Below, piece by piece: positions 2,768 through 38,501 of a stretch of DNA of 64,000 nucleotides. The translations under genes were made by a program, and so were the position numbers. The DNA is from an uncultured Alphaproteobacteria bacterium. GTDB taxonomy: Bacteria; Pseudomonadota; Alphaproteobacteria; RF32; CAG-239. Position 1 is the first letter of the stretch. Every line of letters starts with the position of its first letter. The notes beneath the pieces are model-generated. The model did no database searches. It saw only the letters and a list, made by a program, of their open reading frames with translations, and was not told where the DNA came from. The stretch covers positions 45,819-109,818 of the forward strand of contig CALXWE010000004.1 in assembly GCA_944392295.1 (NCBI GenBank). Reading direction: 5' to 3'.

Positions 2768-3125
2768 TCTCAAAAATCATGGTGGAAAGTTTGCCGAGCT
2801 TTTAGCACGATTTTATATGCGCTTTAAGGGCTATAAAATTGTGGCGACTAATGTAAAAGTCGGCAGAGGCACTACCGCCGGTGAAGTAGATTTTGTGGCG
2901 CTTAAGAGCGGAACTTTGGTGTTTGTTGAAGTTAAAAAACGTCAAAATTTAGATGTGGCAAGATATGCCATTTTACCTCAACAGCAAAAACGAATCGTAA
3001 CCGCAGCAAAAGTTTTTTTGCAAAATAATCGGCAATACCAAAACTATGATGTTCGTTTTGATGCGGTGCTCGTAAAATTACCGTTTACCATTGAGCATAT
3101 CCGAAATGCTTGGCAGGAAAAATAA
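2736..3125 (+). CDS. yraN: YraN family (UPF0102) endonuclease-like protein
   Basis: The GEVDFVALKSGTLVFVEVKKR motif is typical of UPF0102. I prefer the ATG at 2736, preceded by AAGGA at 2726-2730, over the track start at 2700. Overlaps the rsmI 3' end. Confidence 0.75.
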   Translation: MIKLWNLKINNLKNHGGKFAELLARFYMRFKGYKIVATNVKVGRGTTAGEVDFVALKSGTLVFVEVKKRQNLDVARYAILPQQQKRIVTAAKVFLQNNRQYQNYDVRFDAVLVKLPFTIEHIRNAWQEK

Positions 3126-3154
3126 AAAAGCCCGCTTTCCAGCGAGCTTTTTTG
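3124..3154. terminator. Bidirectional rho-independent terminator between convergent yraN and the PPIase gene
   Basis: A-run, stem AGCCCGCT (3129-3136) / AGCGAGCT (3141-3148) with one mismatch, loop TTCC, then a T-run. Confidence 0.6.
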
Positions 3155-3170
3155 TTGCAATCAGCCTCTT

Positions 3171-4025
3171 TTATTTAGCTTGTTGCTCGGCGGCAACCGG
3201 AATTTCTTTTCCTTGTAAATCATATTTTTGGATTTTGCCGTTTTTATATAAACCGTCAAAGGTTTGAGCAATGGCTTCTTGTGTTAACAAATTTTTGATT
3301 TGCGGTTCAACGTCTTTTAACGGTAAAGGCTGAGAATCGCGGAAATCTTCAACCAAAATCACATGGTAACCGAATTGAGTTTTAACCGGAGTTTTGGTGT
3401 ATTCGCCTTTAGGCAAAGCAAAAGCGGCCTTGGTAAATTCCGGAACCATAATGTCTTCGGCAAAATAACCGAGCTCAACAGTTGAATCTTTGGTGTATTT
3501 TTTAGCTACTTCATCAAAGTTGCTGCCGGCGTTTAATTCGGCGATGACTTTATTGGCAGTGGCTTCATCTTCAACCAAGATGTGTTTAGCGCGAGCTTCT
3601 TTTTTGCTTTTGAAATTTTTAACGTAATTGTTGTCGTAAAAGTTTTTGATTGAAGCATCATTTACCTTTTCGGCAACGATTTTTTCTAAGTAAACTTTAC
3701 GAGCCAAATCTTCCTGAGCTACTTTTAATTGCTCTTTATATTCGGGAGATTCTTGAACTTTGGCGGCACTGGCTGCCTGATACAAAAGTTTGCCGTTTAC
3801 AAAAACATCAACCGCTTTGGGGTAAAATTGCTCAAAAGGAACTTGAGCAGCAATTTGCGGATTAGCCTCATAACCTTTTTTAACATCTTCAATGCTTATT
3901 ACTTCACCGTTAACACGTGCAGCAACACCGGCATTTCTTTCGGCGTAAACCTTAAATGATGCAAAAGCGGCGGCTGCAATAACTACAACGGCTGCGGTTG
4001 TTGTCAAAATATATCTTTTGTTCAT
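3171..4025 (-). CDS. PpiC/parvulin-type peptidyl-prolyl cis-trans isomerase (SurA/PpiD-like), secreted
   Basis: Parvulin core AKHILVEDEATANKVIAELNAGSNFDEVAKKYTKD...FGYHVILVED. Start moved to MNKRYILTTTAAVVVIAAAAFA (ATG at 4025, SD GGAGG just upstream). The track's longer ORF overlaps the secA start. Confidence 0.8.
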   Translation of the reverse strand: MNKRYILTTTAAVVVIAAAAFASFKVYAERNAGVAARVNGEVISIEDVKKGYEANPQIAAQVPFEQFYPKAVDVFVNGKLLYQAASAAKVQESPEYKEQLKVAQEDLARKVYLEKIVAEKVNDASIKNFYDNNYVKNFKSKKEARAKHILVEDEATANKVIAELNAGSNFDEVAKKYTKDSTVELGYFAEDIMVPEFTKAAFALPKGEYTKTPVKTQFGYHVILVEDFRDSQPLPLKDVEPQIKNLLTQEAIAQTFDGLYKNGKIQKYDLQGKEIPVAAEQQAK

Positions 4026-4189
4026 ATTGACCTCCAAAATTTTTAAAATTACTGACTTTAGATATAAACTTTTTTTATTAATATTCCAAGTCTTTTTTAT
4101 AAGTCGTTCATAACTTAGTTTGTGAGTATTGACATTAGTTAAGATAAACACTAAATGTATCATATTGCGATAAATAATAAGGTAAGAAC

Positions 4190-6934
4190 ATGTTAAATAA
4201 AATAGCCCGTGCACTGTTTGGAAGTGCTAATGACAGATTTGTTAAAAGACAAATGAGAACAGTTGAAAAAATCAACTCTTTGGAGCCTGATTTTGTGAAA
4301 CTTTCCGATGATGAATTAAAAGCCAAAACCGATGAGTTTAGAGAGCGTATTAAAAACGGCGAGACTTTAGATGAGTTGTTGCCCGAAGCGTTTGCAACCG
4401 TAAGAGAAGCCGCCAAAAGGACCTTGGGTCAACGTCATTATGACGTCCAGATGGTTGGCGGTATTGTTTTACATAAAGGTATGATTGCCGAAATGAAAAC
4501 CGGTGAAGGTAAAACTTTGGTAGCAACTTTGGCAGCATACTTAAATGCCTTGGAAGGAAAAGGCGTTCATATTGTTACGGTTAACGATTATTTGGCTAAG
4601 CGCGATGCCGAGTGGATGGGACAGGTTTATCGGTTTTTAGGCTTGACCGTCGATTATATTGTGCATGGTAAAGATGATAATCAAAGAAGAGAAGCTTATA
4701 ACTCTGATATTATTTACGGTACTAATAATGAGTTGGGCTTTGATTATCTGCGCGATAATATGAAGTTTAATTTGGAAGACAGAGTACAGCGTGATTTTAA
4801 TTTTGCAATCGTTGACGAGGTGGACTCCATTTTAATTGATGAAGCCAGAACTCCGTTGATTATTTCGGGAGCTGCCGAAGATTCTTCAGAACGCTATATT
4901 ACGGTTAACTCCATTATTCCGCAGTTGACACAAGCCGATTATGAAAAGGATGAAAAGGCGCGTACCGTTACTTTAACCGAAGCCGGTATGACCCATGTTG
5001 AACAGTTGTTAAAACAGGCCGGCTTAATTACCGAGGGCGGTTTGTACGATGTAGGTAATGTACAGCTCGTGCACCATGTTAACCAAGCTTTGCGGGCACA
5101 CAAAATGTTTACTCGCGATGTGGATTATATTGTAAAAGACGGCAAGGTTGTAATTGTTGATGAATTTACAGGCCGTATTATGGAGGGTCGTCGGTACAGT
5201 GATGGTTTGCATCAGGCTTTGGAAGCCAAAGAACACGTTAATATCCAGTCTGAAAACCAGACCTTGGCATCTATTACTTTCCAAAACTATTTCCGCTTAT
5301 ATCCCAAACTTTCGGGTATGACCGGTACGGCTATGACCGAAGAAGCCGAGTTTGGTGATATTTACGGACTTTCTTGTGTGGAAATTCCGACCAATAAGCC
5401 GGTTATAAGAGTTGATGAACACGATGAAATTTATCGTACCGAAAAAGAAAAGTATGCGGCAATTATTAAAACTATTTTGGATTGTCATCGCCGCGGACAG
5501 CCGGTGCTTGTCGGTACGACCTCGGTTGAAAAGTCGGAAATTGTTGCCGATTTGTTATCGAAGGCTGCTCCGAATGTTCATTTTGAGGTGTTAAACGCCC
5601 GTCATCACGAGCGTGAAGCTGCCATTGTGGCTCAGGCCGGTGTGCCGGGAGCAATTACCATTGCTACCAATATGGCCGGACGCGGTACCGATATTCAGCT
5701 CGGCGGTAACTTAGATATGAAGTTAAAGTCGGTATTGACCGGTAATGAGACTCCCGAGCAGGTTGCCGAAATAAAAGAAAAACTTAAAAAAGAAATTGAG
5801 GCCGATAAACAAAAAGTTTTAGCAGCCGGAGGTCTTTATATTTTAGGTACTGAGCGTCATGAAAGCCGCCGTATTGATAACCAATTACGTGGTCGTTCAG
5901 GTCGTCAGGGAGACCCGGGAACTTCTAAATTTTTCCTCTCTTTGGAAGACGATTTAATGCGTATTTTCGGTTCAGACAGAATGTCGGCCGTGTTGCATAA
6001 ATTGGGCTTGCCCGAGGGTGAGGCTTTAGTTCATCCTTGGATTAGCAAGGCTTTGGAAAAAGCTCAGCAAAAGGTTGAGGAGCGTAACTTTGATATTCGT
6101 AAAAACTTGTTGAAATATGACAATGTTATGAATGAACAACGTAAAGTTATTTATGCGCAACGTAAAGAGCTGATGGAAACTGATGATGTCTCCGATGTAG
6201 TGGCTGATATGCGTCAGGAATATTTATCTTCGGTAATTGCCGAATATATTCCTTACGGCTCGGCTCCTGAAGACTGGAAAAAAGAAGAGTTAAAGCAAGA
6301 ACTTGCTAAAATTACGGGCTTTGTTTTGCCGATTAATAACTGGGCAAATGATCCCGAGATTGACAGCGAGACTATGACTCAGAAAATTTTGGATGAAGTT
6401 GAAAAGCGCTTAAACGATAAAAATGAGAATATTCCGGTTAATGTGGTTAAAATGGTTGAGAAGAGCATTTTGCTGCAAGTTTTGGATCAGCTCTGGAAAG
6501 ACCACATTGCAACGTTAGATTTAATGCGTCATACCATTGTTTTGAGAGCTTATGGTCAAAAAGATCCGCTTAATGAGTATAAGCGTGAAGCATTTAATAT
6601 GTTTTCGGATATGTTAGATGCTCTAAAAGAAAAGGTAACGATAGTAACCTGTCGTACACTTATTCAGAGCAATTCACACGAAGCCATGCAGCGCGCCGAG
6701 CAAAAACAGCAAAATGTTAAAATGCAAGCCGTACATGAACAGCCGCAAAATTTGGTAGGCGGACAGTCTGCTCCGGCCGAAGAAAACGAAGAAGAAAAGG
6801 CTGAACCATTCCGTCATGTAACAGGGCAGATTGATCCGAATAATCCGGCCACATGGGGCAAGGTCGCCCGCAATGATTTATGCCCGTGCGGCAGTGGTAA
6901 AAAGTACAAACACTGCCATGGCAAAATTGCTTAA
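4190..6934 (+). CDS. secA: Preprotein translocase ATPase SecA
   Basis: 914 aa. Canonical motifs [28 protein letters not shown] and [10 protein letters not shown], plus the C-terminal zinc motif [14 protein letters not shown]. Confidence 0.97.
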
Positions 6935-6937
6935 CAT

Positions 6938-6968
6938 AAAAAACCTCCGTGTTAACGGAGGTTTTTTA
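6938..6968 (+). terminator. Rho-independent terminator after secA
   Basis: AAAACCTCCGT (6940-6950) / ACGGAGGTTTT (6955-6965), loop GTTA, T-run. Confidence 0.85.
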
Positions 6969-7017
6969 TTGTTTAAGCGAACACATTGTTGTTGCATTTT
7001 AATAGTTGGTACTTTTT

Positions 7018-7659
7018 TTATTTTGTATTTTTAAAATAAAATTGGAAATAGACTTGCTTTTTATCAGTTAATTCGAACTGTTGTTCACATATGTTATTTA
7101 TTTCGGAAATACTCATATTGGCAAAATCATATTGAGCGTTTACCAGGTTTATGTTTTTTCCTCCACCGGGTTGATTTCTTAAATATATAAAAGTAAATCC
7201 TTTAGGATTTTCTCTGTAAATGGGTTGTAATGCAAGTAGAATATTACGGCAATAAGAAATACCGATATCAATGCTTGGGAAGGTTATTGGAGTTTCGTAT
7301 TGAGGTTTGCCGTATATGGCTAGTACCGTATCGTGATTTAATGGGTGATTGTAAATATATATTGTACTATAAGTACCAAAGGCATCTTTCAGATACTCGT
7401 TTTGAACAGACATACCGTCGGGAATAGCATTTAACTTTTGATATATCGGAATCAAAGAATCATTTGGTTCGGCTGATATTTGATATTGATAGGTATAAAT
7501 CATATTAATTAATGATGAAATTTGCTCAGCTTGCTTATTTAGTTTATATTTCATCATCGCCTTAGAGTAACCGGCGATGGCACCGACGGATAGCACTCCA
7601 ATTATCGCCAGAACGCCGAGCATTTCGACCATCGAGCGTCCAAGTTCATTAAATTTCAT
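7018..7659 (-). CDS. Type IV pilin-like protein (class III signal peptide), variable family paralog A, short leader
   Basis: MKFNELG|RSMVEMLGVLAIIGVLSVGAIAGYSKAMMKYKLNKQAEQ. Gly at -1, Glu at +5, then a hydrophobic helix. Divergent C-terminal domain. SD GGAGG before the ATG. Confidence 0.75.
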   Translation of the reverse strand: MKFNELGRSMVEMLGVLAIIGVLSVGAIAGYSKAMMKYKLNKQAEQISSLINMIYTYQYQISAEPNDSLIPIYQKLNAIPDGMSVQNEYLKDAFGTYSTIYIYNHPLNHDTVLAIYGKPQYETPITFPSIDIGISYCRNILLALQPIYRENPKGFTFIYLRNQPGGGKNINLVNAQYDFANMSISEINNICEQQFELTDKKQVYFQFYFKNTK

Positions 7660-7740
7660 CTAAAAACCTCCGATTTTGAGTTGTTAAAGGACTTTAAACG
7701 AAATCATAAACCGTTTTTTTTTTTTGCAACTTTAAAAGGA
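7660..7740 (-). promoter_or_regulatory. Conserved upstream cassette of the pilin-like family (copy 1): SD, putative -10 TATGAT, A12 tract, TTGCAA
   Basis: Coding-strand sequence TCCTTTTAAAGTTGCA(12xA)CGGTTTATGATTTCGTTTAAAGTCCTTTAACAACTCAAAATCGGAGGTTTTTAG-ATG. Nearly identical copies precede all six family genes. The homopolymer is at 7714-7725. Promoter hexamer assignment is tentative. Confidence 0.6.
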
Positions 7741-7777
7741 ATAAAGTTGATGTTTTATTTATAATATTGTTGTTAAA

Positions 7778-8407
7778 CTATTTCCAAGTAGCATAAAATA
7801 CGCATCCGCTTGATTCTTTTAAGCAACTATTACAGAGAGTATCAAAGTCTTCTAGAGTTAGACTTCTGATACATCTTTTGTTTTTAGATGTATCACAATA
7901 AGCGTCACCATGAAGAGTGTTTGATGAATATTCCGTATCTCCGTCTTCTGATTGACTTTGGATTTGTGAATAAGCGTTATACAATATTCCTGAATGTTCT
8001 TTGTATACATTAAGTAAGTTGCGGCATATTTCTAAACCGTTATTATCTGAACTAAATCGGTAGGCTAAACCGTAAACTGTTGGGTAGGCAAATACCCAAA
8101 TATCATTTTTAAAAATATCATTTAAATAGGTTGAGTTGCGGCGAGAGATTCCATCTGGGAGCATATTTAATTTATAAAGAGTTTCAGCAAAGTGCATGGC
8201 GGCGCCGTTGGTTGATGTATTAATTAACTTATGGCTTATTTCAAAAGCATTGATAAATAACATATTCATGCTTTCTGCTTGCTTATTTAGTTTATATTTC
8301 ATCATCGCCTTAGAGTAACCGGAGATGGCACCCACCGACAGTACGCCTATAATAGCCAAGACGCCGAGCATTTCGACCATCGAGCGTCCAAGTTCATTAA
8401 ATTTCAT
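7778..8407 (-). CDS. Type IV pilin-like protein, variable family paralog B, short leader
   Basis: Same leader and N-terminal helix as paralog A (MKFNELG|RSMVEMLGVLAIIGVLSVGAISGYSKAMMKYKLNKQAE). C-terminal Cys cluster CDTSKNKRC...CNSCLKESSGCVFY. Confidence 0.75.
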   Translation of the reverse strand: MKFNELGRSMVEMLGVLAIIGVLSVGAISGYSKAMMKYKLNKQAESMNMLFINAFEISHKLINTSTNGAAMHFAETLYKLNMLPDGISRRNSTYLNDIFKNDIWVFAYPTVYGLAYRFSSDNNGLEICRNLLNVYKEHSGILYNAYSQIQSQSEDGDTEYSSNTLHGDAYCDTSKNKRCIRSLTLEDFDTLCNSCLKESSGCVFYATWK

Positions 8408-8484
8408 CTAAAACCTCCGATTTTGAGTTGTTAACGGGCTTTAAACGAAATCATAAACCGTTTTTTTTTTTTGCAACTTTAAAG
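8408..8484 (-). promoter_or_regulatory. Conserved pilin-family upstream cassette (copy 2)
   Basis: Near-identical to 7660-7740. Homopolymer 8461-8472 (12 nt). Confidence 0.6.
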
Positions 8485-8494
8485 ATTCGGGCGA

Positions 8495-9293: not shown

Positions 9294-9983
9294 ATGAAAA
9301 AGTTTTATTGTATATTAATTTTTGCATTTTGTGGGGTGTTTTGCAACGCAGCTCTCGCGGCGCCGACACCGGATGAAGTGTGCGCTAAAATTGTTCGTAA
9401 ACCAAAAGTCGAACTATCTGTTTCTTACGGCAAGCTGAAATATGATTTTTCTAAAAGCGGACGCAGTCTTACCAGAATGCATATTAAACATTACGGGGGA
9501 GGCGTTCCGGCCGGAAAATATGTTAACGGCTTGGCTACTAACGATTTAACTACCGAATTGACGTTTAAATTAACCAAAAACACCCTTAATAACGGTATGA
9601 CTTGCGTGTATCCTTCCGTGGTGGAACTGAAAGTTAAAATCGATAACCCGACTATTTATCTTGCTAAAGAAATGGAAAAAAATTCTTGCATGTACAATAT
9701 TGCCATGCGTCATGAACAAACTCATCAGCAAATAAATGTTGAAGCGTTTGATTATTATTTGCCGATGATTAAAAGTGCTTTGTTAAGAGCTGTGCAAAAT
9801 TTTCCGCTCATGAGCGGAAAAGCAGATGTAAGTTTGGTGCTTGCCAAGAAGCGTTTTACCGACGAATATATGAACGAGGTTAACCCCGTACTTAATGAGT
9901 TACAAAACGAAATAAAAACCGAACAAGCCAAACTTGACAGCCAATCGCATTACGACTATGAAGCCGCACTTTGCGGGAACTAA
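9294..9983 (+). CDS. Secreted putative Zn-metallopeptidase (HExxH; DUF922-like by recall)
   Basis: Signal peptide ending ALAAP. HEQTH motif in NIAMRHEQTHQQ. Conserved Cys before the motif, as I recall for DUF922. No search done. Confidence 0.45.
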   Translation: MKKFYCILIFAFCGVFCNAALAAPTPDEVCAKIVRKPKVELSVSYGKLKYDFSKSGRSLTRMHIKHYGGGVPAGKYVNGLATNDLTTELTFKLTKNTLNNGMTCVYPSVVELKVKIDNPTIYLAKEMEKNSCMYNIAMRHEQTHQQINVEAFDYYLPMIKSALLRAVQNFPLMSGKADVSLVLAKKRFTDEYMNEVNPVLNELQNEIKTEQAKLDSQSHYDYEAALCGN

Positions 9984-9995
9984 ACTTTTGCGTTT

Positions 9996-10673
9996 TTACT
10001 CTTTATTTTTTTTGCAATCAGTTAAAAATTCAACGCAAGCATCAATGCCTTTGTAGGCAGCATCAATATATTCTTTGTCTTTAGATGAGTTATTTTGATA
10101 GTAAATTCTGATAGTGGCCATGCCGGTTTCTTTGGCAAACTCTAGGTTTGAATAACTGTCATCTACAAAAATGCAATCGTGCGGATTATAGCCGATTTTA
10201 TCACAATATTGACGGTAAACATCGGCACTCTCATTCTTTTTATAAACTCCGAAATCTTCAACCGAATAAAAGCGGTCTTTGAACATATCGTATAAACCTA
10301 TCCGTTTTAATATTTTCTCGGAAGCGTAACGATTACTTGCCGTAAATACGTATTGCTCAAACGGAATTTTTGCCAATTTTTCAGCTAAACCTTCATATGG
10401 CTCAATCAAATGAACGGGCTTGCGATTAAAGTAATATTCAAATAAATCTTTGGGAGATATGCCGTAGTCGCGATAAAAAACTTCACCTCCGTCGCGGTAT
10501 ACTTTGTATGATTCTTTTACCAAAGCCTTACATTCGGGCACGCTCATCTTTACGCCTAAATCTTTTACCAATGCTTCAGCCATGGCTTCATCCAATTTAT
10601 CGCCAAACTCGGGGGTTACTCTGTACAGTGTGTTGTCTAAATCCCAAATAACAACTTTTTTATCGCAAAACAC
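9996..10673 (-). CDS. HAD-superfamily hydrolase (pyrimidine 5'-nucleotidase-like)
   Basis: Motif I VVIWDLDNTLY (DxDxT) and motif IV FVDDSYSNLEFAKETGM. Confidence 0.6.
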   Translation of the reverse strand: MFCDKKVVIWDLDNTLYRVTPEFGDKLDEAMAEALVKDLGVKMSVPECKALVKESYKVYRDGGEVFYRDYGISPKDLFEYYFNRKPVHLIEPYEGLAEKLAKIPFEQYVFTASNRYASEKILKRIGLYDMFKDRFYSVEDFGVYKKNESADVYRQYCDKIGYNPHDCIFVDDSYSNLEFAKETGMATIRIYYQNNSSKDKEYIDAAYKGIDACVEFLTDCKKNKE

Positions 10674-16691: not shown

Positions 16692-19600
16692 TTATTGGGT
16701 TATAGAATTGTTATTTTCAAGTTTCTTTTGGCGATACATACGTATCAACTTGGTTATGTAATTTTGTATCATTGAAACCATATATTTTTGATTATAGCTG
16801 TTGTGAATTTCATCATAATTATCTGTAGATGAAATGTTTTGCGTTTCTTTACCCTTTACAAAAAGTTTGATAAGAGCTTTTTTAAGTGCGGTCGGATTGG
16901 TGTTTTCTTGGGCTAAAAATACTTCTAAACCTTTTCCGGCAACACTGCGTGTTAGGGAATTGGGGTTACGGGACTTAAAGGTATCCGACATACCGCGAAT
17001 AACTTCCTTATCATTTTTACCGGAAAGCAATATCGCTCTTACAGCATTATATCCGGCTAAATCTTCGTTAGTCTTTGAGTTGTTAATGCTTTGTGCTATC
17101 TTAATAATGGCGGCAATTTTGGCGGCGTATTGCGATTTATAATTACCGCTTTTATATAACATCATATAGGTTGTTATCATATCGGGAGTTTCGCCTTCGC
17201 CCTTTTCGGCTACCGTAAAGTTAAAGGTATCGTATAAAAGACGTCCGAATTCATATCGGTCCTCAGGTGAAAATGGATGATTGTTTTCTTGTCTGTTAAT
17301 GGTATAGATAACCTCTTTCATGATGCCTTTTAAAATGGCCGTATCAACATTTTGACGTTTGATTAATTCTCCGATTGTCGGCATAAATTCCTTTGGTATA
17401 TCCGGACTTAAGGAATTTTTATCAAGTTCCTGAATGCGATCGGCCATTATTTTGAGTAATGGTATTTTAACTTCCGATGCTTGTTGAACTTTAATTATTT
17501 CTTTCTTGATTACGCTGCCTATTTTGGCGGGTAAATACTTAAAGGAATCGGCGTACATATTAAACAACATACTGCCTAAAAATTCTCTGTCCGAATACGA
17601 TAATAAATTTTGTTCTGAATAAAATAAACCGAGTTGTTTTATTCCTTCATCAACAAAACCGGTTATGATGCTTTCATCAATTGAGGTATTGCCGTCAGCT
17701 AAGGCGTTGTTTATACAATCTACCAAATCAATGATTTGAAAATCTTTATAAAAATCAATAACAGAGAGCAGTGTCTTTAGGCAATCTGATAAGTAGGATG
17801 AAGTCGTTTGTTTTAGCCGATAAGCATCTTCAATTTTGTTTCCGAGAGTAACGCTGAACTGACGGAATAAATTTCCTTCAAAATTACTGCTTACCATTTT
17901 CTCAAAAGTTTGGTATAAAAATTTTCCAAGCAATTTTTTATCTTGTGCCGAGGCATATACGGTGGCTCGTGCTCCACTATCAAAAATACAAATGGTATTA
18001 GTTTCCGGATTGAGGCGTATCTGTCGGCCAAATTCAGTATTGCTGACATTTCCCCCGCTTATTAATTTGCTTAATTTAAGACTGTTATAAATTTTATTTA
18101 CTACCTGTCTGTAACGTAAATTTTTAATTGTATCTAATGTGTTGCCGTAACTTCTTTCCATTTCTGCCCAAGTTTTACCGTAAGCTGTCCAATTGGCTAC
18201 TCTTAGCTTAATCTTATAACCATCAATTTCAAATTCACGGTGATTGTAGGTCTTTTGGGCCGCTTTTAGCTGCTCGTAGCCTACACTTAAATCGGTCTCA
18301 ATTATAACATCATGTCGGGTTTGAGTAATTATTTGTAGAAGACTATTGATGTTTTCGGATAACAGATTGTCGTGGAATAAGTCGTACAAAGTGTCTTCAA
18401 ATGCCTTAAATTCTTTTTCGGCAGAAGTTTTTGTAGCAGCATAAACGATTTTTACAACTTTGTCGCTTTCAAATGGTGATTTGTTTTTTTCAAGTGCACC
18501 TTTTTCTAAAGTTATAAAATACGGATTGGAGCTTAGGCTGCGTCCGAGCCAGATGTTTGAACTGTAATCAAGTTTGTTATCGTCATCTTGTGTATTATAA
18601 AAGTCAAGCCATTCAAACAATTCCCAACGAGCTGGGTGCTGCTCCTTAAACTTTATTTTTTGTAACTCTTTACGTATATATTTAGGCAGAGCTAAACAAA
18701 CTGTTGCCGATTGTGCTATACGTGTAGCAACCGGACCGGCATTTTCTAAAAAGATGCGGGTGCACTCTGCTAAATTTTTATTAGCATCGATGGTTGCCGG
18801 TGTCTCAAGGGCAGCGCTCATGGCTGCAGCCAGATATAATGTGCGCTCTGAATTTTTATGAGCTTTGATGTAGCTGTGTAAAATCTTACATACAATTTGT
18901 TTCTTAACATCATCAACAGCGGGTAACAAATGTTTACATATGCAGTTGAAAATGTGCTCCCAATCATTGGCCGAAATCCCTAAATTAGAAGCTTGGATAA
19001 CTTCACCTAAAATGACGGCACGGGCCTCTATTGGATATCCCCAAAATTCATGGTAAAGCATATCAAGAGTTTGCGGAGATATTCTTTCTTTACGAGAGCG
19101 TTGACTTTCTTGCAGTGCAGAATTTAAATGCTGGCTGTAGGCTTCACAATCCTTGTTACTACCGAATGTTAAAAGAAAGTCTATCAGATTATCGGCTTCC
19201 GTGCGGGATAAGGATATTAATGATTTAATTGTAGCAAATCCGGCAATTTGCAGCCTACATCCGTCATCTTCTTCGCTTATTTCCATAAAACTTGCAGGGT
19301 AGGGTTTTAACAGAAAAGCAAGTTTTTTTTGTGCTACAAATCTTTCTGCCAACAAGTGTGATAATTCAAGTCGGTCAGCCTGATTAACATTTTCATCAAT
19401 GTCTATGCCGAACATATTTTGTTCATAACTGTAGCCGTGCAGTTTTTGAGCATATACTTTTACTTTGTTGTAAAGGGATTCTGATTTGTCATCAATTTGT
19501 GAACCGCAGGAGCTAAATACCGATTGTACCCATAGCTGTTGATAACGCCTTCTTAAATCGGGGTCTAAAATACGGTGCTGCTTATTGATGAAAATATCGT

Positions 19601-22600
19601 AATAACTGTTTTTTAATTCAGGCTCGCGAATACTTTCTATCTCGGGAATAAAGTTTTCCAAAAATTGATGTTGTAAAACATAATCGTCGGCAAATCCGTT
19701 GACTTCAACCAATTTTTGATAGGCCTTAATTTTACCTATTAAATCGACATTGAATGCCGGGTTGTCTTGGATTAGCATATTTTTGAGTTGGTTGTCGCCA
19801 ATGTAGTCTAGTGTTTTGGCTATCTCAACCGAGGCAGCAAGAGCTTTTTGCGGGTTGTTTTCTTTTTTAATTTGTTTGATTATGTAGCTCAAACTTTCCG
19901 TATCATCAATAAGACCTTGCTCGCGAAGGCTGCGGTAGACCTTAACCATGCCCAAAATGTCGGCAGGATAATTTTCTCTTTTGATTAAAAACGGTTTGAG
20001 CTTGGCTCTTTGCAAATCCAGCAATTCATAAAGCGGATACTTTGATAATATCTCAAGCGGAAACAGATGCTTGTCATCGGTGATGATGTATAGCAGCATA
20101 CCGGTTCGGATATTGGCTGCCAAATCATCGGAAGATTGTAAAAGTTTTTCATCTTTAAAGTCGGCAAAATCAACCGGAAAATCTAGAGCCTTTCGAATGT
20201 GTTCGTAAAAGACCGGTTGATATTTTTGGAAATTAATATTCTCTAATGTTAAGTGTTTGTCTGCAGCCATTTCGTTAAGAGCAAAAACGGCAAGACGTTT
20301 TAATTCGGGAATGACAATGTTGTTTTTGCTTAACAGACCTAAATCGAGAAGTTTCTTAACGCCTACTTTTTCAAACAAGGTGTTGTAATATTTAATAAAT
20401 TGGGCTTCGCTGAAAAATTGTACGCTGCGTGGGGATTTAAGCGCATCTTTACAAAATTGCATAAATTCATATTCGATAGGTTGCAATGTGTTAAGCGACC
20501 AACCGTATTCTGCATGTTCAACGTCGTTGCAAACGTGGCTTAAGTAAGCTTCAAAAATTATGTTGTCGTTTTCAAGACTATACTTCGAATTAACAAATGC
20601 TAAAATCTCGGGACCGAGCAGTTTGTTAAATCGCAGCTCGTTAAATTTGCTGTAACCTTCGTAAATTTCCGAGGAAGTTTTGAGCATGTAAAAACTATCT
20701 TCTATAAAATTTTCAACAGGCTGTTTTTGCGGATAGGCAACGCTGGTATTATCTTTGAGTAAGGCATTGGCATAATCAAGGGATGATACTGCTTCTGACT
20801 TTGCTACATATTTGTATGGACCGGTGAGACCTTTAAGATGTAAGAGGTCTTTACTGCTTAAGTTTTTAATTTTTTGCGGATTTTGCGAAGCCGTACGAAT
20901 TATATCGTAGTACTGCTTAATCTCCTTGGCAAGCTGCCGATAAATGGTATCTTCCCTGGTTTGCAGTAAATCTTCAAGTTTGGCTTTATATTCTTTTGGT
21001 GAAAACGAATCGAGGATTTTGCCTTGATTGTCGCAAATATAAAACCAGCTCTTATCGGTAACATCAGCTGAAAATGGGGCTTCGCGGTAATTGCCGCGAT
21101 AGTGTATTATATAGCACCCTTTATATATTTCTTTGGCGGTTAATCCTAGGATTTTTTCATATACGGAAGATCGCAAAGCAATTAAGGGTATGGTCTTACC
21201 TTTATCAGAACCGTTTTGTTCCAGAGGTAATTTAGGAAATCTGTCCAGCTTAAATTTTTTAAACAGATAGCTATCGCTTTTAGGGTAAAATTTTAAATCT
21301 TGCGGTAAAAATGTAGTCGGGTTGTCGGAGCTGAAACAATCTCGGATATTGGAAAATTTTGACCATACACGACGCTGATATGCAGGGTCTTCTTGGTTGT
21401 GAAATACTTTTTCAAATTCTTCCAAAATGTTTCTTCCGGTAGGAAGTTTGCTGATATCAATATCTTCTATGCCGCTTAAAATACATCCGTTATAAATGCT
21501 TAAATAATCGCCGTCGGGAAGCTGGGTTTCTAAATCAAGCAATTTATCCCAGAACAAAACGTTGGGAAAAGTTCCCTCAGCAATGGCCCGCTTTTGATAC
21601 TCTTCAAGCAGATTGTTAAATCGGGAAACAGTTTCAAATGCATCATCAGGTACAATTTTTTGCGGAAAACTTTCTAAAATTGAAATACGATGCTCAAGAG
21701 ATTCCGGCAAAGGCGTATGAAAAATTTCTTGCCAACGTTTTTGACGCAACTCTTCGTGAGCCGGATTATAACTTTTAAATAATTCATAGTCGCTTTGAGA
21801 GACAATTTTACGTGCCATATTGCGTCTTAAGTCGGCGACATAACTTAAAATAACATCTTCAATTTGTACGGCTTGATTATGAGTTAATTCCTTTGAAGGC
21901 GGAATAAATTCTTTTAGAGCAGAAATTAATATATCTTGCTTTTCGATTAAACTAAAGGAATCGTACTTTTTACTTTCTAAAAGTTTACGCAGGCTTGATT
22001 TATAGTAACTTTTGTTTACCGAAGTTTTAAATTTAACCGGAATTTCGGTCGGCTCAAAAGCCGTAATGTCAATATCTTGTTTGTAATAGAAACTTTGTAA
22101 AGATTGAATCTTTAACTGTAAAGCATTAAGCATACTTTCATTATTAGGGTATTGTTTGAAAGCTTTTAAGATTTTTGCAGATAAAGAGTGATATTTTTGT
22201 GAGTTAAGAAAAATATGGGTTATTAAACTTTCGGCCTGGGCAATGTTATATTTGGCCTGAGCTAACATTTTAAGGGCGTTAAAGTCAGAAGAATCTCCTG
22301 CGCTGTAATCGGTGTTTTTGAAATAAGCAGGAATAAGTTTTAGCTCATAACTCATAATGAAGGCTAATTGGTCTTCATTTTGTACAATATTGATTAGACC
22401 TTTGGTTACGGTTAGGACAGGAATAAGGTTTTGCTTGCCGGCTTGATTTTTAATTTGCGGAACAACAAAGGAAATATTAGGTTCACTATCGTCGGTGATG
22501 CAGAAAAATACGGGATTTTGATCAAGATCAAATGAGGTGCCGAAAAGTCGGCGGGCTATACCCTCAAGATAAGAGCATCTTTCTTGTTCTTCTTGCAAAG

Positions 22601-22670
22601 TACCATCAATGATTTTAATCTGGTCATACAAATCAGAAGGTAAATTTCTTTTAATCTGTAAAACATCCAT
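16692..22670 (-). CDS. Giant orphan protein (1992 aa), mostly helical, with a degenerate ABC1/UbiB-like kinase-like module
   Basis: Uninterrupted 5.98-kb ORF with no signal peptide or TM segment evident. Residues ~1305-1600 (nt 17871-18758) loosely follow the ABC1 pattern (details in findings). Confidence 0.8.
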   Translation of the reverse strand: MDVLQIKRNLPSDLYDQIKIIDGTLQEEQERCSYLEGIARRLFGTSFDLDQNPVFFCITDDSEPNISFVVPQIKNQAGKQNLIPVLTVTKGLINIVQNEDQLAFIMSYELKLIPAYFKNTDYSAGDSSDFNALKMLAQAKYNIAQAESLITHIFLNSQKYHSLSAKILKAFKQYPNNESMLNALQLKIQSLQSFYYKQDIDITAFEPTEIPVKFKTSVNKSYYKSSLRKLLESKKYDSFSLIEKQDILISALKEFIPPSKELTHNQAVQIEDVILSYVADLRRNMARKIVSQSDYELFKSYNPAHEELRQKRWQEIFHTPLPESLEHRISILESFPQKIVPDDAFETVSRFNNLLEEYQKRAIAEGTFPNVLFWDKLLDLETQLPDGDYLSIYNGCILSGIEDIDISKLPTGRNILEEFEKVFHNQEDPAYQRRVWSKFSNIRDCFSSDNPTTFLPQDLKFYPKSDSYLFKKFKLDRFPKLPLEQNGSDKGKTIPLIALRSSVYEKILGLTAKEIYKGCYIIHYRGNYREAPFSADVTDKSWFYICDNQGKILDSFSPKEYKAKLEDLLQTREDTIYRQLAKEIKQYYDIIRTASQNPQKIKNLSSKDLLHLKGLTGPYKYVAKSEAVSSLDYANALLKDNTSVAYPQKQPVENFIEDSFYMLKTSSEIYEGYSKFNELRFNKLLGPEILAFVNSKYSLENDNIIFEAYLSHVCNDVEHAEYGWSLNTLQPIEYEFMQFCKDALKSPRSVQFFSEAQFIKYYNTLFEKVGVKKLLDLGLLSKNNIVIPELKRLAVFALNEMAADKHLTLENINFQKYQPVFYEHIRKALDFPVDFADFKDEKLLQSSDDLAANIRTGMLLYIITDDKHLFPLEILSKYPLYELLDLQRAKLKPFLIKRENYPADILGMVKVYRSLREQGLIDDTESLSYIIKQIKKENNPQKALAASVEIAKTLDYIGDNQLKNMLIQDNPAFNVDLIGKIKAYQKLVEVNGFADDYVLQHQFLENFIPEIESIREPELKNSYYDIFINKQHRILDPDLRRRYQQLWVQSVFSSCGSQIDDKSESLYNKVKVYAQKLHGYSYEQNMFGIDIDENVNQADRLELSHLLAERFVAQKKLAFLLKPYPASFMEISEEDDGCRLQIAGFATIKSLISLSRTEADNLIDFLLTFGSNKDCEAYSQHLNSALQESQRSRKERISPQTLDMLYHEFWGYPIEARAVILGEVIQASNLGISANDWEHIFNCICKHLLPAVDDVKKQIVCKILHSYIKAHKNSERTLYLAAAMSAALETPATIDANKNLAECTRIFLENAGPVATRIAQSATVCLALPKYIRKELQKIKFKEQHPARWELFEWLDFYNTQDDDNKLDYSSNIWLGRSLSSNPYFITLEKGALEKNKSPFESDKVVKIVYAATKTSAEKEFKAFEDTLYDLFHDNLLSENINSLLQIITQTRHDVIIETDLSVGYEQLKAAQKTYNHREFEIDGYKIKLRVANWTAYGKTWAEMERSYGNTLDTIKNLRYRQVVNKIYNSLKLSKLISGGNVSNTEFGRQIRLNPETNTICIFDSGARATVYASAQDKKLLGKFLYQTFEKMVSSNFEGNLFRQFSVTLGNKIEDAYRLKQTTSSYLSDCLKTLLSVIDFYKDFQIIDLVDCINNALADGNTSIDESIITGFVDEGIKQLGLFYSEQNLLSYSDREFLGSMLFNMYADSFKYLPAKIGSVIKKEIIKVQQASEVKIPLLKIMADRIQELDKNSLSPDIPKEFMPTIGELIKRQNVDTAILKGIMKEVIYTINRQENNHPFSPEDRYEFGRLLYDTFNFTVAEKGEGETPDMITTYMMLYKSGNYKSQYAAKIAAIIKIAQSINNSKTNEDLAGYNAVRAILLSGKNDKEVIRGMSDTFKSRNPNSLTRSVAGKGLEVFLAQENTNPTALKKALIKLFVKGKETQNISSTDNYDEIHNSYNQKYMVSMIQNYITKLIRMYRQKKLENNNSITQ

Positions 22671-25774: not shown

Positions 25775-26443
25775 TTACTTAAATACATAATATACAACAC
25801 ATATGTTACCCTTTAAGCATTGATTACATAAATTCCAGATAGTGCTAATATCTGCTGAATAAATACAATAGTCCTGGTTACTACACGTTTTACCATAGAG
25901 CCACTGCTGTTGATTTTCGTCGTTACTATCGGTACCGTTAAATCCGATTGCTTGTAATTCATAGGCAAAGCCTTTTGCTAAGTTAAAGCGATTAATACAA
26001 GAATCTATATCGCTGTTATAAAAACGGATGAATGTTTGCTTACTTGTATTGTCTCTGTATATAAGTATTTGATTATTGAAACTATCATAAATATAATCAG
26101 TATTATCTTTAATCATTTCTTGGGGGATTATGTTAAGCTTTTTATAATATGGAAGCATATATGTTACTTGTTCAGATGAATTTGTTTCGTATAATATGTT
26201 TTTGTATTCAATCATTCCGCTTAAAAGCTGGCTAAGTTGTTCGGTCTGTTTGTTAAGTTTATATTTCATCATTGCTTTAGAGTAACCGGCGATGGCGCCG
26301 ACGGACAAAACTCCGATAATTGCCAGCACGCCCAGCATTTCGACCATACTTCTTCCGGCGGAAAGTTTGTATAAGGGCTCATCTAAAGCCGTTTTATGGG
26401 AGCTTATTTTTACGAATTGGCATAAAAATTTATAAAATTTCAT
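25775..26443 (-). CDS. Type IV pilin-like protein, variable family paralog C, 30-aa leader
   Basis: MKFYKFLCQFVKISSHKTALDEPLYKLSAG|RSMVEMLGVLAIIGVLSVGAIAGYSKAMMKYKLNKQTEQ. C-terminal CSNQDYC...CNQCLKGNICVVYY. Confidence 0.75.
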   Translation of the reverse strand: MKFYKFLCQFVKISSHKTALDEPLYKLSAGRSMVEMLGVLAIIGVLSVGAIAGYSKAMMKYKLNKQTEQLSQLLSGMIEYKNILYETNSSEQVTYMLPYYKKLNIIPQEMIKDNTDYIYDSFNNQILIYRDNTSKQTFIRFYNSDIDSCINRFNLAKGFAYELQAIGFNGTDSNDENQQQWLYGKTCSNQDYCIYSADISTIWNLCNQCLKGNICVVYYVFK

Positions 26444-26520
26444 CTAAAACCTCCGAGTTTTGTTCAATAAAGGACTTTAAACGAAATCATAAACCGTTTT
26501 TTTTTTTTGCAATTTTAAAG
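26444..26520 (-). promoter_or_regulatory. Conserved pilin-family upstream cassette (copy 3)
   Basis: Same cassette. Homopolymer 26497-26508 (12 nt). Confidence 0.6.
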
Positions 26521-26653
26521 TTAATGCGTTTGATAAAATCAGCTGGTATGTTATGTTTATTTTTTGTTAAATCTTATTGGTTACACTTTGTTTTATTGAC
26601 TTTTGTCGCTCTTTATTTTATAATGTGACAAAAGAAGACAAAAAAGGTGCGCC

Positions 26654-28144
26654 ATGAAAAAGGCTGAGTTGGTAAATTTTTTAGAGGCGGAATATGCCGC
26701 TGCACATCGTTCTCCAAAAACTATAAAGCTGTTGGGGCATTCTTATGTTATCCCTTGCGTGTATTTGACCGAATATCAAGATCCAGAAAAATCTTTTATG
26801 AATGATTTTTTTGAGTTAATGCGTAAAGATTATCTGCATTATAAACGTTGTAATGAAGAACCTCAGTATGTTTGTTTGGCGCTCGGTGATAAAAGTATAA
26901 GACTGGTGGTGCCTTATGCCTTACGCTATAAAAATCATACCCCAAATGAAATTGCCGATAAAATCTTAAAAAGAGCCAGTGATAAATATTGGCGGGCGGT
27001 TAGATTATCATCGGAGATGGCCGAAATTTATCCTGACAGACCGTTCAAAACATTTATTAATTTGGCTAACTTAAAAGAAATGCGTAACGCCTTAAGATTG
27101 CACCGTCTCAAAGAAGCTCGCGATAGAACTGCCTATATTACGAAAAAGGTTGGCACGTTCTTGGCTAAAAATGCTCGTAAAGTTACGAATAATATTAAAC
27201 ATATGGATGTTGACCGCCTTAAGGCCAAAGCTAAAACCTGGGCGGTGGTAGCGGTGCTTGGAGCAACCATTAATGCCGCTGTTTATACTGCTTTCCAAAT
27301 TAAAGATAAATCAGAACAAAAAAAAGAAGTACAAGCTAAAGACCCTTTGGGGCATATCAGAATGTTTTCACGTTGTCATGATGCCATTAAGGTTAGTTTG
27401 GCTTTTGCCGAAAATTTTGCTCCTAAAGCTTTTAAAGACGGTGTAGGTGTACCGACTATCGGTTACGATTGTACTTATTATTTGGATGAAAACGGTAAGG
27501 GAAGCCGTGCAACGTCGCCGGTGAAAATAGGAGATAATATTACTAAAGAAGAAGCCAATGTTCAAAAAGAGCGCTACTTACAGTTTGAAATCTTAAATCA
27601 AATTCAAGAAAATGTTAAAGTCCCGTTAGATGAAGCAACAATGATTGCTACATGTAATTTTGCTTATGTGTTGGGCTCAACGAACTTTAGGAATTCAGAG
27701 TATCTAAAAGCCTTAAATGAGGGTAAAAAAGGTGAAGAGCTCGTTAAATATTTAACCGGATATCGTCAGCAAAAGGGCTTGCTACCAAGATTTTATTTTA
27801 TGGGTGCTTTGCTTAACGGTAAATTAAAAACTTCCGATTTTTTGAATTTAACGGCAGAAGGTTGTTATAATCTTAGTACCAAAGATGTGTGCGTCTATAA
27901 AGGAAATAGAATAAAACTTGATGGTGAAGGGTTTGCCGAGTTTGATTATGATAAGTTAGAGCAAAATCTTGTAAAATCTAACAGAGCACGACGCAGTAAA
28001 GCTTGCGGAAATAAAAAGTGTCCGCCGGTTAAAGATATTTTACCGCAATCGGTAATTGACGGTGTTTTACAAATGGAAAAATCATCAAATTATACGGGCT
28101 TATTGTCGGAAAGTTTGTTGAATCTAAATGCCAATTCGAGATAA
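26654..28144 (+). CDS. Membrane-anchored protein with C-terminal GH24 (phage-type) lysozyme-like domain
   Basis: TM segment WAVVAVLGATINAAVYTAFQI. Downstream, AENFAPKAFKDGVGVPTIGYDCT...GDNITKEEANVQKERYL...VPLDEATMIATCNFAYVLG...LLPRFYFMGALL aligns by eye with P22/lambda-type lysozymes (EGxxLKAYxDxxGxxTIGxGHT...). The putative Glu, Asp and Thr are retained. Confidence 0.55.
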   Translation: MKKAELVNFLEAEYAAAHRSPKTIKLLGHSYVIPCVYLTEYQDPEKSFMNDFFELMRKDYLHYKRCNEEPQYVCLALGDKSIRLVVPYALRYKNHTPNEIADKILKRASDKYWRAVRLSSEMAEIYPDRPFKTFINLANLKEMRNALRLHRLKEARDRTAYITKKVGTFLAKNARKVTNNIKHMDVDRLKAKAKTWAVVAVLGATINAAVYTAFQIKDKSEQKKEVQAKDPLGHIRMFSRCHDAIKVSLAFAENFAPKAFKDGVGVPTIGYDCTYYLDENGKGSRATSPVKIGDNITKEEANVQKERYLQFEILNQIQENVKVPLDEATMIATCNFAYVLGSTNFRNSEYLKALNEGKKGEELVKYLTGYRQQKGLLPRFYFMGALLNGKLKTSDFLNLTAEGCYNLSTKDVCVYKGNRIKLDGEGFAEFDYDKLEQNLVKSNRARRSKACGNKKCPPVKDILPQSVIDGVLQMEKSSNYTGLLSESLLNLNANSR

Positions 28145-36277: not shown

Positions 36278-37069
36278 TTATTTTGTAAAATCAAACTGTA
36301 TCCACTGGTAAAAGTAAAGACTACCGTTATTTACAAACTCATTGTAACTTTTTTGGCAGGCTTCATAAAAATCGTGGGTTGTCATATTAGGTAGGCAAGG
36401 GGATGTAGATTTACAATTTTGCCGATAATAGTAATAATATGGTCGCTCAATCCAAACGGTTGTCAAAGATGAAGTTTCTGGTTGTATGGATTTTAACATC
36501 TGAAACGTATTAACACAAGCATCTACGGAGCTTTGTGCTTTGTTATAATGAATAATAAATGCAAGATTATTTCCATTTTTTCCTACATATAATTCTATGC
36601 TTATACCAAGAGAGGTTTTGACAACGTTTTTGCTTATATAAGATACACCATCAGGTAATGATTTTAATGTATTCAGTAACCCGGCGACATCTGTTCCCGA
36701 AGATGTTTTTTCGTAATATTTTTGTGAAATAGTCGATGTAACAGCGGTCAGCAGTTCCGAAATTTGTTGGGTGTGTTTATTTAATTTATATTTTGTCATC
36801 GCCTTAGAGTAGCCGGATATAGCGCCAACCGATAGAATGCCAATGATAGCAAGAACACCAAGCATTTCGACCATACTTCTTCCGGCGGAAAGTTTGTATA
36901 AGTGCTCATCTAAAGCCGTTTTACGGTACTGAAAAAAATTCATGTACTTTTTGTGTACACTAAAATTTTTTTCGCCCCTAGAAACGACTTTATCTAAACT
37001 CTTCTCCAAACTTTCGGGAAAAAAGGGGCTGATTTTTACGAATTGGCATAAAAATTGATAAAATTTCAT
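36278..37069 (-). CDS. Type IV pilin-like protein, variable family paralog D, 63-aa leader
   Basis: MKFYQFLCQFVKIS[33-aa insert]RKTALDEHLYKLSAG|RSMVEMLGVLAIIGILSVGAISGYSKAMTKYKLNKHTQQ. The same cassette precedes the MKF start. Confidence 0.7.
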   Translation of the reverse strand: MKFYQFLCQFVKISPFFPESLEKSLDKVVSRGEKNFSVHKKYMNFFQYRKTALDEHLYKLSAGRSMVEMLGVLAIIGILSVGAISGYSKAMTKYKLNKHTQQISELLTAVTSTISQKYYEKTSSGTDVAGLLNTLKSLPDGVSYISKNVVKTSLGISIELYVGKNGNNLAFIIHYNKAQSSVDACVNTFQMLKSIQPETSSLTTVWIERPYYYYYRQNCKSTSPCLPNMTTHDFYEACQKSYNEFVNNGSLYFYQWIQFDFTK

Positions 37070-37150
37070 CTAAAATCTCCGAGTTTTATTCACTAAAGGA
37101 CTTTAAACGAAATCATAAACCGTTTTTTTTTTTTGCAACTTTAAAAGGAA
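37070..37150 (-). promoter_or_regulatory. Conserved pilin-family upstream cassette (copy 4)
   Basis: Same cassette. Homopolymer 37123-37134 (12 nt). Confidence 0.6.
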
Positions 37151-38447: not shown

Positions 38448-38501
38448 TGTTGCTCTACCTTTAAAAAAAAGATTAAATTGACTTCCGATATTTAAGGATT
38501 T

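Follow-up and report, generated by a model that had tools for sequence, protein, structure and literature searches.

Type IVb pili have so far been known almost solely as colonisation factors of enteric pathogens, with one major pilin each in the toxin-coregulated pilus (TCP), the bundle-forming pilus (BFP), colonisation factor antigen III (CFA/III) and longus. Type IVb prepilins are 180-200 amino acids (aa) long with a leader of ~15-30 aa, and the class III signal is defined as a hydrophilic leader up to Gly(-1), followed by ~21 mainly hydrophobic residues that are broken by Glu+5 (PMC4471445). Here we analyze a stretch of 64,000 nucleotides from an uncultured alphaproteobacterium of the RF32/CAG-239 lineage (GCA_944392295.1, contig CALXWE010000004.1, positions 45,819 to 109,818), referred to below as the window, which carries six genes of a single family whose proteins we identify with high confidence as type IVb prepilins. 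We further consider it probable that these genes represent a lineage-specific multigene family of type IVb prepilins of uncultured gut Alphaproteobacteria, with the processing pathway and the expression switching proposed below.

Six prepilin genes and their type IVb affiliation

The six family open reading frames (ORFs) are all on the minus strand and were re-found at the positions listed in a preliminary description of this sequence. The tandem pair c7018 (7018-7659, 213 aa) and c7778 (7778-8407, 209 aa) shares the 7-aa leader MKFNELG; the Gly(-1) codons lie at 7639-7641 and 8387-8389, the N-terminal blocks at 7522-7638 and 8270-8386, and the mature proteins have 206 aa with 2 Cys and 202 aa with 6 Cys, respectively. 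Three copies have a 30-aa leader, namely c25775 (25775-26443, 222 aa; leader ending in KLSAG; N-terminal block 26237-26353; mature protein 192 aa), c61273 (61273-61983, 236 aa; block 61777-61893; mature protein 206 aa) and c62110 (62110-62787, 225 aa; block 62581-62697; mature protein 195 aa). The leader of c36278 (36278-37069, 263 aa; block 36764-36880; mature protein 200 aa) has 63 aa and consists of the 30-aa leader with a 33-aa insertion. The genes adjoining the family copies are secA, ppdK, lepA, tuf and rnhB, a context that the ORF and Pfam assignments bear out.

In the alignment, all six proteins have in common Gly(-1) followed by RSMVEMLGVLAIIG...KYKLNK, with the invariant block GRSMVEMLGVLAIIG(V/I)LSVGAI(A/S)GYSKAM.KYKLNK, and they keep the scaffold motifs (K/T)LN..P(D/E/Q)(G/E) and C.N.. 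in the head. A C-terminal Cys cluster is present in four copies (7778, 25775, 61273 and 62110), the number described earlier, with a spacing of C-x5-7-C instead of x5-6. Both a degenerate pattern of the N-terminal block and the 22-nt core of the upstream cassette have exactly six matches in the window, with 0.00 expected from shuffled sequence in each case. Between copies, identity is ~97% for the first 36 residues of the N-terminal peptide, only 50% at the third codon positions of this block and 61% at the nucleotide level for the remainder of each gene. Since the cassette of ~85 nt that lies 5' of each gene is 90% identical against 50% at the third positions, the six copies are old, and their cassette and N-terminal peptide are under purifying selection.

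All six window proteins carry the class III signal in the sense of PMC4471445. Among 254 homologs, Gly(-1) is present in 252, while R+1, S+2, M+3 and E+5 are present in all 254. Conservation begins exactly at Gly(-1), and the lengths of the leaders that precede it range from 5 to 92 aa with a bimodal distribution (short, 5-8 aa; long, 26-92 aa). The mature length is 194-210 aa among the homologs, with a family median of 202 aa (192-206 aa in the window), so that the size fits the type IVb class and the leader range is wider than in its known members. Different copies use unrelated codons for the G-R-S tripeptide (GGA CGC TCG, GGA AGA AGT, GGT CGG TCT, GGG CGC AGC), and the cassette ATG is in frame with it in 104 of the 111 cassettes of related loci (numbered here with the prefix L), with an open frame in 104 of these 104. 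Translation through the proposed cleavage site is therefore certain, and an internal start at the Met of S-M-V-E is ruled out by the conservation of G-R-S through unrelated codons. Two long-leader copies, at ~9820-10010 of both L019 and L046, have their ATG out of frame with G-R-S and stops in between; they may be pseudogenes or frameshift “off” variants.

The models for prepilin signals place the window proteins below threshold. In the searches that the preliminary description had proposed, N_methyl (PF07963) gives 13.7-14.5 bits against a cut-off of 21.2, and TIGR02532 gives ~10 bits against 16.3. However, BfpA of enteropathogenic Escherichia coli (EPEC), a bona fide type IVb pilin, itself reaches only 14.1 bits on N_methyl, which means that this cut-off does not discriminate type IVb pilins. 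The Pfam PilS model (PF08805) matches only c62110 among the six (13 bits, cut-off 22). A sister sub-clade with the block GRSM(I/V)EMLGVLAIIG passes the Pfam thresholds, with 54-58 bits for PilS and 40-60 bits for Bundlin, and its profile aligns to the window-type profile with an hhalign probability of 99.9% (E 6e-35). With the BfpA sequence of pMAR2 as the query, tblastn finds family members at E 9e-13 and 1e-11 (the second over 206 aa) and the window gene c36278 with 33.6% identity over 125 aa (E 3.8e-5). The family profile aligns to BfpA over 176 columns (hhalign, E 2.2e-4), pairing LPDG with IPDN and the Cys residues with each other. The best PDB sequence match is TcpA, which is weak (E 0.054) and spans the head up to the conserved Cys.

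Structure prediction, also among the checks suggested earlier, gave AlphaFold models with a mean predicted local distance difference test (pLDDT) of 85.7 for c7778 and 86.1 for c7018, in which an N-terminal helix of ~50 residues (residues 8-58 in the AF2 models) is followed by an alpha/beta head. The predicted structure has the type IVb pilin fold, with a long alpha1 helix and an alpha/beta head with extra helices. Two Cys, C128 and C192 in c7778 numbering, are invariant and align with the Cys pair of BfpA and TcpA, which suggests a disulfide delimiting a C-terminal D-region. These results retain the description of the family as type IV pilin-like with a class III signal and sharpen it to the type IVb (bundlin/PilS/TcpA) class. 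The label “non-canonical” stands for one feature only, the unusual Arg at +1, where BfpA has Leu and TcpA has Met; the low N_methyl score, the variable +1 residue, the long leaders and the mature protein of ~200 aa are the norm among type IVb pilins.

The family has no Pfam model, and its members currently go under “hypothetical” or under the incorrect name “type II secretion system protein”. The latter name, used by NCBI for some members, is unsupported because the models for pseudopilins of the type II secretion system (T2SS; GspG-K), including TIGR01710, TIGR01708 and related ones, give 11.6-16.3 bits against cut-offs of 80-89, and because the N-terminus is RSMVE and not GFTLIE; we rejected a T2SS pseudopilin on the same grounds. 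Our literature search on RF32, CAG-239 or gut Alphaproteobacteria together with pilins found no description of the family.

The claim of an expanded, dispersed family in which each copy has its own cassette holds well beyond the window. A word-indexed search returned at least 7,913 matches, either unnamed or from metagenome-assembled genomes (MAGs) labelled “Alphaproteobacteria bacterium”, and a profile search of 1.84 billion representatives of 50%-identity clusters matched 5,619 of them at E<=1e-3 and 3,886 at E<=1e-10. At least 563 family stretches were confirmed in the GTDB representative genomes and at least 515 further ones in JGI metagenomes. The best 80 of the GTDB stretches all come from MAGs of uncultured gut, rumen or faecal Alphaproteobacteria, one of them mislabelled as Lachnospiraceae, and within this subset alone at least 11-18 copies per MAG were recovered. 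A scan of viral contigs gave no family relatives and a tblastn search of the PLSDB plasmids gave no family match, indicating that the family is not phage or plasmid cargo. Many MAG copies are no more than a few hundred bases away from the end of a contig (for example in L006, L012, L013, L014, L016 and L023). As the conserved 5' module breaks short-read assemblies, the copy numbers obtained from MAGs are underestimates, and the family is a practical source of MAG fragmentation in this lineage.

The 5' module: cassette, leaders and the A-run of the putative promoter

The cassette has the order CTTTTAAAG-TTGCAA-A-run-CGGTT-TATGAT-...-GGAG-N7-ATG, and all six window copies possess it together with a ribosome-binding site, an ATG and an open leader frame. 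It lies on the minus strand at 7660-7738 for c7018 (TTGCAA 7724-7729, A12 7714-7725, TATGAT 7703-7708 with a 15-nt spacer, GGAG 7668-7671), at 8408-8485 for c7778 (TTGCAA 8471-8476, A12 8461-8472, TATGAT 8450-8455, GGAG 8415-8418) and at 26444-26521 for c25775 (TTGCAA 26507-26512, A12 26497-26508, TATGAT 26486-26491, GGAG 26451-26454). The remaining cassettes are at 37070-37147 for c36278 (TTGCAA 37133-37138, A12 37123-37134, TATGAT 37112-37117, GGAG 37077-37080), at 61984-62061 for c61273 (TTGCAA 62047-62052, A12 62037-62048, TATGAT 62026-62031, GGAG 61991-61994) and at 62788-62865 for c62110, where an A11 run (62842-62852) gives a 14-nt spacer between TTGCAA (62851-62856) and TATGAT (62831-62836), with GGAG at 62795-62798. 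From their position and conservation, TTGCAA, the A-run and TATGAT form a putative sigma-70-like promoter. A sigma-54 promoter was rejected, as the TTGCA of the cassette is not accompanied by a GG element at the correct distance, and no RNA family was found in the cassettes or leaders at the Rfam gathering thresholds. The 22-nt core has no exact match in the GTDB representative genomes; either the species of the window is outside these representatives or the cassette differs there.

The leaders show a further peculiarity at the DNA level. In the clade comprising HGM16767, ERR2619727, B13, H07603 and MGYG, the long leaders contain palindromic modules of the form CCTGGA-N8-TCAAG-N8'-TGACAG (for example in L021 at ~9830-10010, L027, L038 and L062). 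Their arms covary perfectly (TTATCGGG/CCCGATAA, CCATCGGG/CCCGATGG, CACTCCGG/CCGGAGTG), and the modules occur in either orientation and in variable number, always in frame, and are almost confined to the family leaders. Because the arms covary and the modules are nearly exclusive to these leaders, selection or a templated mechanism would act on a nucleic-acid hairpin and not on the peptide.

The heads behave differently from what the term “hypervariable”, used for them in the preliminary description, would imply. Orthologous heads from different samples show no or almost no differences and paralogous heads are 30-40% identical, and the ratio of nonsynonymous to synonymous substitution rates (dN/dS) of the heads has a pairwise median of 0.23 (n = 80) with no informative pair above 1, which rules out positive selection on them. 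The heads are thus a diversified yet conserved repertoire and not a fast-evolving one.

The exchange that does occur concerns the other end of the gene. When the window is compared with L001, the bodies of the tandem-pair genes differ at 3 and 0 sites, while ~17-20 differences per gene cluster in the 5' untranslated region, the leader and the first ~28 codons, and the first gene of L001 bears exactly the N-terminal-block allele of the second gene of the window. Among near-identical head pairs (synonymous divergence, dS, 0-0.14), the dS of the N-terminal block is 0.17-1.8 or saturated in 11 of 14, and in the pairs L037/L048, L027/L066 and L114/L116 near-identical heads are preceded by entirely different leaders. 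The promoter, leader and N-terminal module are shuffled among heads by gene conversion, in patches confined to the 5' module. The earlier expectation that the family provides substrate for gene conversion was therefore correct as to conversion itself, but the exchanged part is the conserved 5' module and not the variable 3' ends. The antigenic variation that the preliminary description had suggested is a hypothetical function of the family.

The A-run within the candidate promoter is polymorphic in length. Its mode is A12 in the clade of the window and A10 in a second clade, and the flanks compensate for this difference, so that both have the structure TTGCAA-15 nt-TAnnAT. The run is at the clade mode in 67 of 88 tracts; ~20% of copies depart from it, being 9, 11, 13 or 14 nt long, with outliers at 16, 20 and 21. 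An alignment of 1,762 nt between the window and the assembly L085 contains a single difference, A12 in the former and A13 in the latter, located upstream of c61273; the A13 version (TTGCAA-16-TATGAT) is flagged as sigma-70-like by our promoter scan, which accepts spacers of 16-18 nt, and the A12 version with its 15-nt spacer is not. The run of c7018 is A12 in the window and A11 in L001. That expression is phase-variable is a possibility that we hold tentatively, at a little short of even chances.

Regarding orientation, the family genes favour the strand whose GC skew is negative, in the window (all six copies) as well as in related loci, where 102 of 129 copies are located on it (75 of 91 when only loci with an absolute skew >= 0.04 are counted), compared with 133 of 352 control ORFs of >=300 aa. 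They therefore point mostly the other way from the genes around them and probably face the oncoming replication fork. Across most of the window, the cumulative GC skew increases.

Processing, assembly and the weighing of alternatives

A prepilin peptidase of the A24 family (PF01478, 56 bits, with GGGDIKL and PFGP motifs) shares contigs with family genes in two loci. In L143, groESL and a distance of 2.2 kb separate it from a family gene, and in L181 (NCBI GCA_965350415.1) there is a family gene on either side of it. Its ~200 close homologs of 235-238 aa, named “prepilin peptidase [Alphaproteobacteria bacterium]” by NCBI, contain PF01478 only and are always orphan genes among housekeeping genes. 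Both Asp motifs are present and the CxxC motifs seen in BfpP are not; as the protein consists of the peptidase domain only, N-methylation is doubtful and probably absent. One peptidase match in 1.58 Mb of family-targeted DNA is about the expectation for a single-copy gene. A search of the first 1.09 Mb of related DNA found no canonical GFTLIE pilins, which leaves the family as the only visible substrate of the peptidase in that DNA. We judge it likely that an A24 peptidase processes these prepilins.

The assembly machinery was sought by tblastn and motif searches with the Gsp and Hof proteins of E. coli K-12 and the Bfp proteins of EPEC (GspE, HofB, BfpD, BfpF, GspF, HofC, BfpE, GspD, BfpB), in the window and in 1.76 Mb of related DNA with ~190 family copies, which represents ~5-10% of any one genome. 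In agreement with the preliminary description, neither Pfam context nor tblastn with these proteins revealed a pilus or T2SS gene in the window. All copies are monocistronic and dispersed, and no machinery gene lies less than 10 kb from any of them except the peptidase in L143 and L181. That description had regarded a genome with neither prepilin peptidase nor machinery, together with uncleaved N-termini, as speaking against pilins; the peptidase is present in the clade, and an ATPase, a platform protein and a secretin were not found in the sampled DNA. In three related MAGs (L011 at 2812-8090 on the minus strand, L014 and L059), a gene for a VirB11-like ATPase (323 aa) and one for a VirB10/TrbI-like protein of 1,431 aa with a long repetitive N-terminal region are located directly downstream of a family gene and convergent with it. 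We rejected this pair as pilus machinery, since these are type IV secretion genes and not genes of pilus assembly.

On the basis of these data, we propose the following pathway. Each gene would act as an autonomous transcription unit, with its promoter, GGAG ribosome-binding site and ATG, and would produce a type IVb prepilin whose leader is removed after Gly(-1) at the cytoplasmic face by the clade-specific A24 peptidase, leaving a mature N-terminus R-S-M-V-E. The invariant alpha1 helix of ~40 residues would hold the subunit in the membrane and, provided that an assembly machinery exists, make up the filament core; that the proteins assemble into filaments is the side toward which we lean slightly. 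The head of ~160 residues would have the type IVb fold with one to three disulfides, and differences among paralogs would represent surface or adhesive specificities on a common stem, possibly with a role in immune evasion. Slippage in the A-run would set the promoter spacer at 14, 15 or 16 nt and so probably change which heads are made, and short-patch gene conversion in the 5' module would probably re-associate promoters and leaders with heads. More speculatively, if the N-terminal amine stays unmethylated, Arg+1 may supply the positive charge that pairs with Glu+5 of an adjacent subunit. An extended version of this scheme, in which the family is a so far unrecognised programmed-variation system of commensal gut Alphaproteobacteria whose 5' expression modules, made up of a promoter with a slippage-prone A-run, modular leaders of 5-92 aa with covarying palindromic elements in some clades, and the invariant stem, are shuffled by short-patch conversion among dozens of heads to change the displayed fibre, and in which Arg+1...Glu+5 together with a non-methylating orphan peptidase defines a new filament sub-class with perhaps unusual or unlinked machinery, is one that we regard as unlikely.

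Several observations weigh against the proposed pathway and switching. None of the six window proteins reaches the Pfam cut-offs for Bundlin (PF05307), PilS or N_methyl; a Foldseek search of the PDB gave no significant match for the family models; and leaders of up to 92 aa far exceed the 6-26 aa of known prepilins (PMC4471445). The A24 peptidase was not found in the window, the sole part of its own genome that was searched, and neither the window nor the 1.76 Mb of related DNA contains an assembly ATPase (T2SSE), a platform protein, a secretin or a minor-pilin operon, although at the sampling reached per genome this absence is weak evidence and filament assembly stays unproven. The modal 15-nt spacer lies outside the range that the promoter scan accepts, and the A-run differs in only 2 of 8 orthologous pairs; one-base differences in short-read assemblies of ~8x coverage could be sequencing or assembly noise. 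Part of this would be accommodated if the proteins were pilin-like but did not build a pilus, with the signal and stem serving export, anchoring or a short pseudopilus and the heads acting as periplasmic or surface binding proteins, comparable to the large pilin-like expansions of Elusimicrobia and of the Planctomycetes-Verrucomicrobia-Chlamydiae (PVC) bacteria and to the Sulfolobus bindosome, for which there is a precedent (PMC4471445). The absence of an ATPase, platform protein or secretin near the ~190 copies, the orphan position of the peptidase and the ordinary purifying selection on the heads, as for binding proteins, are consistent with such a role. We nevertheless consider it improbable, because the head fold is, in the models, specifically that of the polymerising major type IVb pilins CofA, TcpA and PilS, and because a common polymerisation interface would be expected to keep ~40 N-terminal residues almost absolutely invariant between genera, as is seen here; the machinery that was not found bears little weight at the coverage given above. 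Still less probable, to a degree that makes it very remote, are simple type II membrane proteins with an uncleaved signal-anchor: an Arg at +1 would fit the positive-inside rule and the proteins score below the cut-offs of the curated N_methyl and TIGR02532 models, but BfpA falls short of N_methyl by the same margin, conservation starts at Gly(-1) with free leader length, as expected for a discarded leader, Glu+5 is invariant within the helix, and an A24 peptidase with both Asp motifs adjoins family genes in the clade.

With respect to switching, ordinary regulation has to be taken seriously, even if we doubt it somewhat. According to this explanation, a constitutive or regulated promoter contains the A-run as a fixed structural spacer or curvature element, and the length differences are noise. 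The 67 of 88 tracts at the clade modes of 12 or 10, both giving a 15-nt spacer as though one length were selected, agree with it, as do the few differing orthologous pairs and the low coverage of the assemblies noted above. What speaks for switching instead is that ~20% of the copies deviate by one or more bases, that in one case two independent assemblies agree over 1,762 nt in everything but the A-run, and that promoter homopolymers of 10-13 nt are an established fimbrial switch in Bordetella fim2, fim3 and fimX (PMC1891110). The family itself is no assembly artefact, a possibility that the preliminary description had left standing: the window genes recur in several independent metagenome assemblies. 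The proximity of many copies to contig ends indicates that the repeat disturbs assembly, but identical heads in independent assemblies from different samples, synonymous sites near saturation between paralogs, and thousands of distinct members across ENA, NCBI, JGI and Logan make either an artefact or recent duplications without functional meaning a practically negligible explanation.

Some other features of the window and its relatives were recorded. A 418-aa protein encoded at 41816-43072 on the plus strand has a ubiquitin domain of the eukaryotic type (PF00240, residues 58-126, 85 bits, E 2.6e-24) and a Rad60-SLD domain, which is uncommon for a bacterium and may be a sign of interaction with a eukaryotic host. 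In the region corresponding to ~40.5-41.8 kb of the window, a gene for a NOV_C-domain protein of 1,517 aa is present in one assembly (L086, 1541-6094) and absent from another (L087), and is a strain-variable insertion. An ORF of 1,992 aa at 16692-22670 (minus strand) lacks any Pfam match and is also found in the L001 assembly. Divergent from c25775, the plus-strand region 26654-28144 encodes a protein of 496 aa in which residues 253-374 form a Phage_lysozyme domain. As called, the tuf ORF at 37257-38669 (minus strand) runs too far in the 5' direction and takes in two tRNA genes (Rfam, 38505-38575 and 38609-38691); the real start of EF-Tu is further downstream.

Comparison with known systems

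The family shares with BfpA of EPEC, TcpA of Vibrio cholerae, CofA and LngA of enterotoxigenic E. coli and PilS of Salmonella Typhi and IncI plasmids the class III signal with Gly(-1) and Glu+5, a mature protein of ~200 aa, long leaders in part of its members and a +1 residue other than Phe; an alpha1 helix of ~50 residues, an alpha/beta head and a C-terminal disulfide are predicted here as well. Where those systems have one major and a few minor pilins, it has dozens of paralogs in each genome, and it consists of dispersed monocistronic genes near housekeeping genes instead of a single machinery operon (tcp, bfp, cof, lng or pil). Further differences are Arg at +1 in place of Met or Leu, the invariance of the N-terminal 40 residues across genera, leaders of up to 92 aa, and a peptidase without the Cys-rich N-terminal region of BfpP. 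The host is a commensal alphaproteobacterium and not an enteric pathogen. If they encode alternative fibres, the dozens of type IVb pilin genes in each genome, all with a possible promoter switch, would provide a poorly known commensal lineage of the human and animal gut with a large repertoire of adhesins or antigens. If the proposal is true, this would also be a new example of a contingency locus, combining a promoter homopolymer with conversion of a 5' module.

A parallel for the promoter is found in Bordetella, where the fim promoters contain a conserved element with a homopolymer; strains differ in the length of this tract, and the length determines transcription (PMC1891110). As with fim2, fim3, fimX and fimN, several unlinked major-subunit genes are located away from assembly genes and have a homopolymer in the promoter, which here is a length-polymorphic run of A9-A14 between the -35-like and -10-like hexamers. 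The Bordetella genes, however, encode chaperone-usher fimbriae, number three or four and have a poly-C tract, in contrast to dozens of type IVb pilin genes with poly-A, and their length-dependent transcription has been demonstrated, whereas its counterpart here is inferred.

The pilE/pilS system of Neisseria resembles the family in its many pilin copies with conserved 5' and divergent 3' sequence and in gene conversion between copies. There, a single locus for a type IVa pilin is expressed, the silent copies lack a promoter and the N-terminal region, and 3' segments move. Here, the copies have a promoter, a ribosome-binding site, a start codon and a full N-terminus, and conversion moves the 5' module. 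A Neisseria-type system of silent cassettes was rejected because all six window copies and 104 of the 111 copies in related loci have the cassette, an in-frame ATG and an open leader.

Two further systems share part of this architecture. The vlp genes of Mycoplasma hyorhinis are a multigene family of surface proteins with conserved 5' regions and a poly(A) tract between -35 and -10 whose length switches transcription; unlike the family described here, they belong to a bacterium without a cell wall and encode lipoproteins with repetitive C-termini, not pilins. Elusimicrobia and PVC bacteria have tens to hundreds of genes per genome (for example DUF1559 and the Verru_Chthon cassette proteins) that combine a prepilin-type N-terminus with diverse C-terminal domains, and TIGR02596 gives weak matches. 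The N-terminus of those families is the GFTLIE of type IVa pilins and pseudopilins and their heads are unrelated, whereas the family described here has RSMVE and a predicted type IVb fold.

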